Assembly (NCBI GenBank): GCA_003971905.1
Contig: RSEE01000083.1
Coordinates: 1 to 64,000 of the forward strand
Length of the DNA: 64,000 nt
DNA from: Moniliella sp. 'wahieum'
Taxonomy: Eukaryota
Direction: 5' to 3'
Both the position numbers and the translations under genes were made by a program. Positions 5,825-8,427 of the stretch are shown here, one piece after another. The notes under the pieces are model-generated. The model saw only the letters and a program-made list of their open reading frames with translations. It searched no databases and was not told the origin of the DNA. Each line of letters opens with the position of its first letter. Position 1 is the stretch's first letter.

Positions 5825-6045
5825 CTGTAGTAAGTATGGGTTAGGTTAGGTTAGGTGGGTTAGGTTAGGTTAGGTAAAGTAGGTGTAAGTGCGGAGGGGG
5901 GGGGGGAGATGGGATGGGTAAGTGGGAGTGTAAGTACTGTGGCTCTGGTCGGCCAGAGCCCCAGAGCCAGAGGGAACAGGTTAGGTTAGAAGGTGAGTAA
6001 CGCCTACGGGGGGGACGGTGAGAGAGAGGGGTTAGGTTAGGTTAG
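5825..6045 (-). promoter_or_regulatory. Array of branchpoint-like motifs and 3' splice-site-like cassettes downstream of the BBP stop codon
   Basis: Minus strand: CTAAC x11 (plus-strand gttag at 5840-5873, 5980-5989, 6031-6045); ACTNAC x5 (5830, 5885, 5918, 5930, 5993); pyrimidine-rich tracts; YAG at 6004-6006, 5937-5939 and 5825-5827. Confidence 0.55.
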
Positions 6046-6487
6046 GGGGCGGGGGAGGACAGCGAGCGGAGAGACCCATTGGGTTGTTTTAGTGGGAAAA
6101 GGGGGGAAAGGCGGGGAAAGAAGGGAAGGGGGGGGGGAGGGGGGGGAAGCGGGGAAGGGAAAAAATTGAGAGCGAAAGTTAAAGAGAAAACCAAGCAGTG
6201 CCAAACAAAGAAACCCTGGAACCGCACACAAAGGCAAAACGAAAATGGAAAACCGCGCAATGCAACCATATCCGAAACGGGACGGGACGAAACGGGACGA
6301 GACGGGATGGGGTTGGACGAGACGGGATGGGGTTGGACGGGGCGGGACGAGGGGGGGTGGGACGGGACGGGACGGGACAAATGAGAAAAGAAAAAAGAGA
6401 AAAGAAGCACAACCTTAACCGCACCGGCGCACAGCCTGCTCCCCCTCCTCTTCCTCCTCTTCTCTTCCTCCTTCCGCATTTTGACAC

Positions 6488-8427
6488 TTAGACGGCATAC
6501 CCTTGCTGGCGGTAATACTCTTCCCACTCCTTGGTGTAATCTTGGCCGGCCTCGGCGGCGGGAGCGCCTCCGGCACTCGCCTCGGCAGCCCCAGCACCCG
6601 CACCCGCACCACCAGCAGCTGCAGCAGCCGCTTGGGACGCATAGTACTCGGCCCATTCCTTCGAGTAGTCCGGCTGGCCCTCGGCGGGCACAGCACCAGC
6701 ACCAGCACCACCTGCACCAGGAGCAGCCTGGGCAGGCCAAGCCTGTTGCTGTGCGTAGCCAGGGGCCCAATGAGCCTGCCCCTGTGCCTGAGCGTGAGCT
6801 GGCTGGCCAGACGCGTGGCCCCACCCCCGGCGGTCCATCGAGGCAAACGTGCCTGCTGGACGAGTGCGGCCGGGGGCGTTCCATACGTCCGGGTTGCGCC
6901 ACGGCGGGATCTTACGGAACTTGCTTCCCGGTGGGGCTGGGGTGCCAGTAGCGGTGGGAGCTGCGGCGCCCTGGGTAGGCGCAGGACGGTGTCCGTCCAT
7001 TGGGGCTCGGGAGGAGGAAGATTGCGAAGGCGGTGCACCGCCATGTAACTCGGCCATCAAGTTATCGTATTCGGCATCGAATGCGCCACCGCCACCACCA
7101 CCACCGCCACCGCCCCTACCATTGCCCATACCGTTTCCGCCGCCTGAGCGGGCCTCGTGACAGTCGCCGGCAATGTGGCCCTGTTGGCCACAGCGGTAAC
7201 AGATGATGTGGGCGGTCCAGTTACGTTCCTCGGGACACTCGTACTTACGATGCCCGCGTTTGCCGCAATTTTGACACACTTGGTTCTCATCGTCGCGCAA
7301 GGTACCGTTAAGTGCGGCGAGTTCGCGCAACTGGCTCCGCTTATGATCGTTCTCCCCCTCCGGGACTGAGGCGGCCGTCTCAACAACCTTGTTGATCAGC
7401 TTGATGCAGTGCACTACCTGGTCCATCCGATCCGCCTGTACAATGCAGTGCAAGGGTCGGTCTCGTTCATCTCCTGTCCCGGTCGGCCCTTGCCTTCCTT
7501 GACGGACCCTTTGCCGCGGATGGCCACGCGGGCTCCCGAGTCACGCTCAATGCCCTTGAGCGTGTTGCCGCGCGGGCCGACGATCAGGCCGAAAAAGTTA
7601 ATGTCCGGGTACTCGGTTACGGGGAGGTAGACTTTTTCCATTGGGCGCATGGTGCGGCGGTAAGCAAGGTACTCGGACGGGGGTTGGTACTGCGGGTCGA
7701 GCTGGAGTTGACGTTCAATCCGCTGAGTCTTTCTTCCTCGAGTTTCTTGCGGTAGCGCTGTTCGCGCGTGTTGGTGCGGTGGCCATGCGCGTCGTACGTA
7801 GGCGGAGGGGAGGGACTACGACGCTCCCCGTCGGGAGGGACAATGTCACCACGCGCAAGACGTTGGGTAATCTCCTCGAGCCGGACCAGGTTCGCATACT
7901 TGTCTAGTTCGACTTGCGACACGCCGGTCGACGTGATGGCCGTCGCCATCCCGCCCATGTTGACCTTCTCGTCGCCCCAGCGGGAACGACGCTTGCGTCC
8001 GCCGCCAGCTAGATACAGGACACAGTCCAGGTTAGTAAGAATACCGGGAGAGGGGGGGAGGGGAGGGCGCACGAAGACGTACCTTCTGCCGAAGCGGGTT
8101 CTTCCCGCCCTCGTTTGGCGCCGGCACCCGGAGCGGGCGTCGCACCGGGTACGGGAGTGGCGCCGGGCGCGCCACCGGGGACGCCGACGCTGACGAAGGA
8201 GGGGACGCCATTGATGGTGTAGGGAGCGCCGGCGCGGGGGGGTCCGAGTGGGAGGGCTGCGGAGGCAAGGGCGGGCGGTCGCCACTGGCGCTGCCGCCTG
8301 GACCGGGAGGGCCACCAGCAGGCCGGGTGCCACTGGCGGCGCTGCCGCCGCTGCCGCCCCAGCGGCGGGGAGCGCCGAGGGGCTGGGCGTTCATACCAGA
8401 GCGCTGAGCGTTGTTGCGCCACGACAT
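6488..8427 (-). CDS. MSL5: Branchpoint-bridging protein / splicing factor 1 (KH-QUA2 plus two CCHC zinc knuckles); intron 8009-8082; frameshifted in this assembly
   Basis: [20 protein letters not shown] motif, KH domain ([16 protein letters not shown]...[11 protein letters not shown]), QUA2 ([16 protein letters not shown]), [14 protein letters not shown] and [14 protein letters not shown]. Intron GTACGT...TACTAAC...TAG joins the exons in frame. Confidence 0.95.

Follow-up and report, generated by a model that had tools for sequence, protein, structure and literature searches.

Splicing factors, SR proteins and others, autoregulate through poison exons or introns in the 3' untranslated region (UTR) that are coupled to nonsense-mediated decay (NMD). 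Control over their own abundance is common among splicing regulators. For the branchpoint-bridging protein (BBP, or SF1), the core factor of branch-site recognition, full-text searches outside subscription-only sources, and a review of yeast splicing (PMC11585973), gave no account of a comparable loop, nor of clustered branch sites in the 3' UTR of its gene. What the papers cited here by PMC accession do describe is the specificity of BBP for UACUAAC (PMC4132183; PMC11585973), the leakage of pre-mRNA to the cytoplasm upon loss of BBP or Mud2p, which ties both proteins to nuclear retention (PMC2377449), an unexpectedly high share of 3' UTR sites in crosslinking and immunoprecipitation of human SF1 (PMC3061054), and the binding of SF1 to exonic tandem UACUAAC repeats of Gomafu/MIAT (Tsuiji et al. 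2011, PMC3116199). Here we describe a 64,000-nt stretch of the genome of Moniliella sp. 'wahieum' (contig RSEE01000083.1, positions 1 to 64,000; hereafter the window), in which a BBP gene on the minus strand is followed, at 5830-6045, by a cluster of motifs that match the specificity of its own product. We propose, with confidence that is evenly balanced, that this segment is a platform of decoy branch sites by which BBP exerts feedback on the transcript that encodes it, a reading that draws on the tie of BBP and Mud2p to nuclear retention, on the cross-linking of SF1 to 3' UTRs and on the binding of SF1 by the Gomafu repeats.

The identification of the gene as BBP/SF1, which a first-pass annotation had made from the letters of the window, holds. 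The SF1-HH and zf-CCHC domains are matched by open reading frame (ORF) pieces of the minus-strand gene in Pfam, and its nearest named relatives are the branchpoint-bridging proteins of Ustilago, Sporisorium, Pseudozyma and Thecaphora (Ustilaginomycotina), to which it is identical at ~50% of the C-terminal 321 residues and at 62-66% of the conserved core. The one clear intron carries the branch site TACTAAC at 8037-8031 and directly precedes the exon coding RKRRSRWG. The C-terminus of the protein (6530-6700, minus strand) contains two copies of a DY(S/T)KEW(A/E)EYY motif that matches Pfam FUBP_C and is common to the Ustilaginomycotina orthologues. The gene and the segments behind it are as follows.

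6488..8427, minus strand: BBP/SF1 gene, with ATG at 8427-8425 and the stop codon TAA at 6490-6488, placed by Pfam and by tblastn with orthologues P0003, P0005 and P0020.
8009..8082, minus strand: BBP intron 1, 74 nt, with a GTACGT donor, CTTACTAAC, and 22 nt from there to a TAG acceptor, from sequence reading and an intron scan.
6046..6487, minus strand: the first 442 nt behind the stop, with no CTNAC and about half made of tandem arrays (a purine-rich run, a T-rich run, (CCCGT)~20 and a C-rich run).
6004..6045, minus strand: unit 1 of the cluster, (CTAAC)x3, then a C/T-rich run that includes CTCAC, then GTAG ending at 6004.
5937..5998, minus strand: unit 2, TACTCAC and (CTAAC)x2, then the first CAG runs, ending at 5937.
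5825..5936, minus strand: unit 3, TACTTAC, CACTTAC x2 and (CTAAC)x6, then TACTTAC-TACAG ending at 5825.

All of the 11 CUAAC and 5 ACUNAC that had been claimed for these three units were found, at 5830-6045 on the minus strand, and their distance from the stop codon, given earlier as ~440-660 nt, is refined to 443-658 nt. Seventeen CTNAC pentamers lie on the BBP sense strand within these 216 nt (11 CTAAC, 2 CTCAC and 4 CTTAC); the antisense strand of this segment has none, and the window as a whole averages 3.09 per kb on either strand. The 11 CTAAC span 5840-6045 and the five ACTNAC span 5830-5997. The longer word CTAACCTAAC occurs seven times in the whole window, every copy on the minus strand between 5840 and 6045; over 100 dinucleotide shuffles the average was 0.03 copies, and seven was never reached. 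The cluster is unique in the 64 kb, the next-densest CTAAC groups holding three to four copies, in line with the first-pass annotation, which had seen no comparable cluster elsewhere. Thus, in the window, a cluster of the gene product's own motif lies on the sense strand of the non-coding part of its own gene, and as read from the sequence the cluster consists of BBP recognition motifs (CUAAC, ACUYAC), pyrimidine runs and YAG, with no credible paired 5' splice site.

To place this cluster among other fungi, metagenome contigs were scanned with an alignment of 17 BBP sequences, which yielded 80 BBP loci that were oriented with BBP on the plus strand. For 73 of the 80, a stop codon was placed by aligning 12 orthologues with tblastn and extending the last frame, the other seven running off the contig first; the 52 loci with at least 400 nt downstream were reduced to 29 non-redundant groups by blastn of the first 600 nt downstream, keeping the first member of each, and the counts that follow refer to these 29 loci. 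Behind the BBP stop codon, CT[ACG]AC is distributed as follows.

0-125 nt behind the stop: 48 on the sense strand, 2 on the antisense strand (sense 13.2 per kb).
125-250 nt: 36 sense, 6 antisense (sense 9.9 per kb).
250-375 nt: 19 sense, 3 antisense (sense 5.2 per kb).
375-500 nt: 13 sense, 3 antisense (sense 3.7 per kb).
Beyond 500 nt: 2-3 per kb on both strands, the baseline.

The same asymmetry appears for ACTNAC, with 41 sense and 1 antisense copies in the first 250 nt, and it emerges without prior choice of a motif: when k-mers were ranked by strand bias alone, CTGAC (41/5), CTCAC (39/5) and CTAAC (36/4) were in the top five 5-mers, beside T-rich words, and ACTGAC, ACTAAC and ACTCAC were among the top 6-mers. 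Relative to far-downstream sequence, ACTAAC is the most enriched 6-mer (8.6-fold), and an A precedes the motif in 54 of 116 cases, matching UACUAAC. BBP flanks hold 11.6 motifs per kb vs 1.8 per kb behind 60 neighbouring ORFs of at least 150 codons (Mann-Whitney p = 5e-9), and at least three motifs occur in 16/29 BBP flanks vs 2/60 control flanks; a strict 'terminal exon' filter for control genes left one to three cases, and ORF ends and convergent neighbours were used instead. At the 14 loci with a convergent neighbour, the neighbour's 3' flank holds 3.15 per kb vs 8.2 per kb for BBP (paired Wilcoxon p = 0.005). Dinucleotide shuffles of the 29 flanks gave 28.2 +/- 5.3 motifs (maximum 46 in 300 shuffles) vs 84 observed.

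Among related loci, the motifs hold their position while the spacers between them drift, and CTAAC and CTGAC interchange with the motif class kept. In four groups, 70-100% of the columns inside motifs are identical vs 53-94% outside; pooled over five groups, one of them badly aligned, the motif columns give a weak odds ratio of 1.35 (p = 0.09), and our claim of conservation rests on the visible pattern within each group, not on the pooled test. Confinement to the sense strand, anchoring on the stop codon and conservation of a cluster of the gene product's own motif together form the signature of an RNA-binding protein that targets its own transcript. The first-pass annotation had called for a comparison of BBP 3' regions in related basidiomycetes; the comparison made here extends over fungi. 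With loci assigned to fungal groups by their best named match, all 20 Agaricomycotina-like groups have at least two CT[ACG]AC in 500 nt and 17 of the 20 have at least three, whereas the Ustilaginomycotina-like loci have none or one. The recurrence at orthologous BBP genes exceeds chance over the 29 loci and is absent from three Ustilaginomycotina-like loci.

The clusters of other fungi are not accompanied by splice donors. Donor-like GTRNGT occurs 15 times on the sense strand of the first 500 nt, where there are 116 branch-site motifs, and once in the first 125 nt; no donor excess was seen just upstream of the BBP stop at the 29 loci. Since donor-like sites are this scarce, the clusters are not ordinary 3'-UTR introns. 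One cDNA-like contig, L011, aligns to orthologue residues 1-511 in one piece, while related genomic loci carry two to four introns, and its 3' UTR keeps the CTCAC-CTGAC...CTCAC...CTTAC...CTGAC series of the genomic loci L028 and L032. Because L011 lacks introns and still bears the cluster, the motifs persist in what would seem to be spliced RNA.

Tandem branch sites also occur within the gene. At many loci, two to five CTNAC stand in tandem close to the 3' end of the intron before the RKRRSRW exon; in L014 this intron reads CTAACcCTAACcaCTGACaCTAAC, at the same position as the window intron (CTTACTAAC). The sense strand has a second peak at -1500 to -1250 (67 vs 8), to which ordinary branch sites contribute. 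An intron of ~185-215 nt with multiple CTNAC occupies this conserved position in L014, L016, L028, L017, L019 and L010. Two contigs of ~2 kb that keep only the multi-branch-site intron (L017, 270-483; L019, 260-443), and lack the further introns of related genomic loci, were considered as cases of regulated intron retention in contigs derived from transcripts and were not used, species differences in intron content being possible.

Based on these observations, we suggest the following scheme for the platform. Free BBP, with its partner Mud2/U2AF65, would occupy the decoy sites on BBP mRNA when it is in excess of intron demand; the transcript, loaded with branch-site complexes unable to finish splicing, would then be retained in the nucleus, degraded or poorly processed at its 3' end; and less BBP would be made, closing a negative feedback loop. 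On this scheme BBP is expected to bind the cluster sites, and binding to lower expression. The scheme implies that the BBP transcript of the window organism extends 660 nt past the stop codon; a literature search on typical 3' UTR lengths in Ustilago gave nothing relevant. In the window genome, the cluster was enlarged by replication slippage. Somewhat more tentatively, and on balance with a little more doubt than belief, we extend the scheme to a conserved fungal self-sensing loop, in which decoys behind the BBP stop and tandem sites in the intron before the U2AF/Mud2-binding RKRRSRW exon would together let surplus BBP lower its own mRNA, the window holding a slippage-expanded 3' platform in a Ustilaginomycotina-like fungus. 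The idea that BBP regulates itself or is sequestered on its own transcript, which was already part of the first-pass annotation, therefore gains from the sense-only peak behind the stop at the 29 fungal loci and loses the cassette mechanism (three alternative 3' splice sites) that had been offered with it.

The setting of the cluster has to be considered before this scheme is weighed. Tandem Repeats Finder (TRF) reports 427 rows for the window, which resolve into 270 non-overlapping arrays covering 9,951 of its 64,000 bases (15.5%). Within the cluster lie GGTTA x7.6 at 5839-5875, in which an exact 19-nt unit recurs 2.1 times, and GGTTA x3.4 at 6030-6046. The arrays cover 9 of the 11 CTAAC, three of these being a simple pentamer tract, and as short units in head-to-tail order with high identity they are microsatellites. 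The exact 19-nt unit, TGGGTTAGGTTAGGTTAGG, is repeated two-fold and supplies six CTAAC of unit 3, and because of this the CTAAC copies are not independent. Outside the reported arrays are a CTAAC pair at 5980-5989 and six non-tandem ACTYAC/CTCAC motifs in differing contexts. The telomere unit is TTAGGG in most fungi; the unit here is the pentamer GGTTA, with the hexamer GGGTTA only at block starts, and the arrays are not telomere repeats in this sense. A CTAAC-bearing consensus occurs in 3 of the 540 array-strands of the window, two of the three being the cluster arrays. The other is at 116-181 (plus strand), a C-rich 29-nt repeat with CCCTAAC-like units, just left of a ribosomal DNA (rDNA) fragment. 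This fragment, at which the spacer ends on its left, and a further rRNA-like stretch are as follows.

355..4476, plus strand: rDNA fragment, truncated at both ends and convergent with BBP, from Rfam.
4935..5048, plus strand: 5S rRNA-like stretch, 28.2 bits in Rfam vs a gathering score of 38, of full model length with many broken pairs.

The small-subunit rRNA begins at about model position 395 (window ~355), the large-subunit (LSU) rRNA stops at model position 2350 of 3401 (window 4476), and the 5.8S rRNA (1887-2039) is whole. A highly conserved LSU stretch of the fragment carries a one-base deletion. Seven ORFs inside the spacer (4511-6414) matched no Pfam family, and no hidden gene was seen among them; no second copy of the spacer was found within the 64-kb window; and a search of 3900-6600 against Rfam at a permissive threshold gave the LSU, the weak 5S-like match and otherwise nothing but microRNA and viral matches at the level of chance. 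In the rest of the window, 125 ORFs compared with Pfam gave only zf-DBF, GH79 C-terminal and His_Phos_2. A tRNA gene at 19627-19738 (minus strand) measures 112 nt vs a 71-position model and probably contains an intron.

From this setting follows the rival that we take most seriously, though we regard it as doubtful: that the cluster is a coincidence, a (GGTTA)n = (TTAGG)n microsatellite (the telomere repeat less one G) with decayed copies, placed among other repeats in a spacer that lacks genes and is perhaps left over from the rDNA intergenic spacer, with no role for BBP. The abundance of arrays in the window and the 12 in the 1.9-kb spacer speak for it, as do the recent slippage evident from the exact 19-nt duplication, the truncated rDNA fragment and the 5S-like stretch in like orientation just upstream of the spacer, the distance of the cluster from the BBP stop, and the lack of a cluster at the three loci closest in protein architecture. 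However, besides the two cluster arrays CTAAC occurs in only 1 of 538 array-strands, and the chance that a CTAAC array would fall on the BBP sense strand of a 12-array spacer is ~2% by our arithmetic from the array counts. Also against coincidence stand the six extra non-tandem CTNAC in the same 216 nt, with none on the opposite strand, and the enrichment of the same motif class behind BBP stops across 29 loci. As to an rDNA origin, the LSU breaks off at model position 2350, and the sequence following it therefore need not be spacer; nor does the spacer recur within the window. A reading of the plus strand as the functional one is very improbable in our view. It would have the five GTNAGT (minus-strand ACTNAC read from the other side, a look-alike of the 5' splice site; four GTAAGT and one GTGAGT) and the TTAGG tracts bind the U1 small nuclear ribonucleoprotein on a transcript from the rDNA side, or a Myb/telobox-type protein as a boundary or terminator beside the rDNA. 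These words and (GGTTA)n are indeed present on the plus strand, 1.3-1.6 kb downstream of the rDNA fragment in its direction of transcription; on the other hand, the fragment, truncated at both ends, is unlikely to be an active unit, and in other fungi the enrichment goes with the BBP sense strand and the stop codon irrespective of the neighbouring genes.

The mechanism first offered for the cluster, in which its three units are alternative 3' splice sites used from donors at 6500 or 6424, the level of BBP picking the acceptor to give other C-termini or NMD-sensitive isoforms, now appears improbable. Every unit does consist of branch-site motifs, a pyrimidine run and a YAG with no intervening AG, and both proposed donors exist as candidate sites by sequence: GTATGC at 6500-6495, which overlaps the last codons (G-Y-A), and GTGCGG at 6424-6419, 64 nt behind the stop, where a 3'-UTR intron would fit the usual NMD rule. 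The introns that result would measure 497, 564 and 676 nt from 6500, or 421-600 nt from 6424, vs the 74 nt of the BBP intron; other plausible introns of the window measure ~70-150 nt, in a census (splice pattern plus open frame across the junction) whose 121 candidates are mostly spurious in this GC-rich sequence and which gives rough sizes only. The zones free of AG follow from the near absence of G, and the three conceptual tails are of low complexity, unlike the ...YYR(M/Q)QAAAAAQ... tails of the orthologues. Fungal clusters, moreover, lack donors (15 vs 116), and one persists in the intron-less contig L011. We therefore set aside the splicing of cassettes, of which at most rare use is conceivable, and retain the decoy platform, for which the absence of a usable donor is part of the scheme.

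Several points weigh against the platform, most of them on its application to the window. Its cluster begins 443 nt from the stop with no CTNAC before it, farther out than at most fungal BBP loci, where the peak covers 0-250 nt and densities are back to baseline by 500 nt; the nearest parallel is L007, with motifs 228-597 nt 3' of the stop, and the window cluster may have been displaced outward by the microsatellites next to it. To judge from the repeats themselves, much of the motif count was made by replication slippage, through the pentamer tracts and the exact 19-nt duplication, in a spacer of 1.9 kb that holds 12 tandem arrays, mostly of unrelated units. The rDNA intergenic spacer is known for subrepeats. 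The 5S-like stretch may be a decayed 5S gene or relic in rDNA orientation; if so, part of the spacer could be an old rDNA intergenic spacer, and the arrays could be its subrepeats. The gene itself is interrupted: tblastn with the three orthologues follows its coding sequence through three adjoining frames with no gap, and shows shifts of one base near 7720 and within 7450-7495; the phase mismatch at the intron makes one more shift, in exon 1, probable. These shifts may mark a pseudogene copy or a locally poor assembly with indels; frame breaks are not window-wide, since the 448-residue His_Phos_2 ORF is intact. Distance, slippage, the rDNA neighbourhood and the broken frame make the window case weaker than the Agaricomycotina-like loci.

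The comparison loci carry points against the platform as well. The two Ustilaginomycotina-like groups, L001 (including L002 and L003) and L004, hold one and zero motifs, and L001, L002 and L004, the only loci with the C-terminal architecture and tail of the window BBP, have zero to one motif and no cluster. At these three loci a convergent ORF ends 64-171 nt behind the BBP stop, and this leaves hardly any 3' region for a cluster. The seven Ascomycota-like groups are mixed (5, 4, 3, 2, 1, 0 and 0 CT[ACG]AC in 500 nt), and 5 of the 29 groups have no motif in 250 nt. Finally, the stops of the comparison loci were inferred by frame extension, and the control flanks were defined by ORF ends, not by annotated gene ends.

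If the decoy platform is real, the cell would use branch sites without introns, carried by the BBP mRNA, to titrate the free protein, a simple read-out of its spare capacity for branch-site binding, and the loop would account for the presence of SF1 on 3' UTRs and mature mRNA (PMC3061054). If the window cluster is only a microsatellite, the enrichment behind BBP stops across species stands as a separate observation that needs explanation. Self-regulation is directly testable in model basidiomycetes, in which neither the 3' regions nor the multi-branch-site intron is long and the motifs can be mutated.

Among described systems, Gomafu/MIAT is alike in carrying repeated branch-site motifs in exonic, unspliced RNA; its repeats are reported to bind SF1 more tightly than ordinary sites do and are proposed to alter the local availability of splicing factors. 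It is, however, a vertebrate non-coding RNA that acts in trans, whereas the cluster here follows the BBP gene itself, where the effect to be expected is feedback on BBP; and its repeats are full UACUAAC, while those of the window, as putative binding sites, are CUAAC and ACUYAC. Quaking (QKI), a STAR protein with KH-QUA2 and nearly the same RNA specificity (ACUAA-type), sets its own level via its own transcripts, as Fagg et al. 2017 (PMC5695090) describe, but it is a regulator with nuclear and cytoplasmic isoforms, while BBP/SF1 is a constitutive branch-site factor. The retention of pre-mRNA by BBP and Mud2p (Rutz and Seraphin 2000, as cited in PMC2377449) offers a way in which BBP, once bound, could keep a transcript from leaving the nucleus; what is described there concerns intron-containing pre-mRNAs of budding yeast, not a 3' UTR cluster or BBP's own mRNA. 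Pentanucleotide microsatellites and interstitial telomere-like repeats share the head-to-tail pentamers, the exact higher-order duplication and the array-rich spacer, and differ in that motif, strand and host gene here fit the specificity of the gene product and that non-tandem variants surround the tracts. In autoregulation by poison exons and NMD, as in the platform proposed here, a factor senses its own level via elements that resemble splice signals and lie in non-coding parts of the gene encoding it; that mode needs productive alternative splicing, whereas the clusters in the window and in other fungi come without matching donors.

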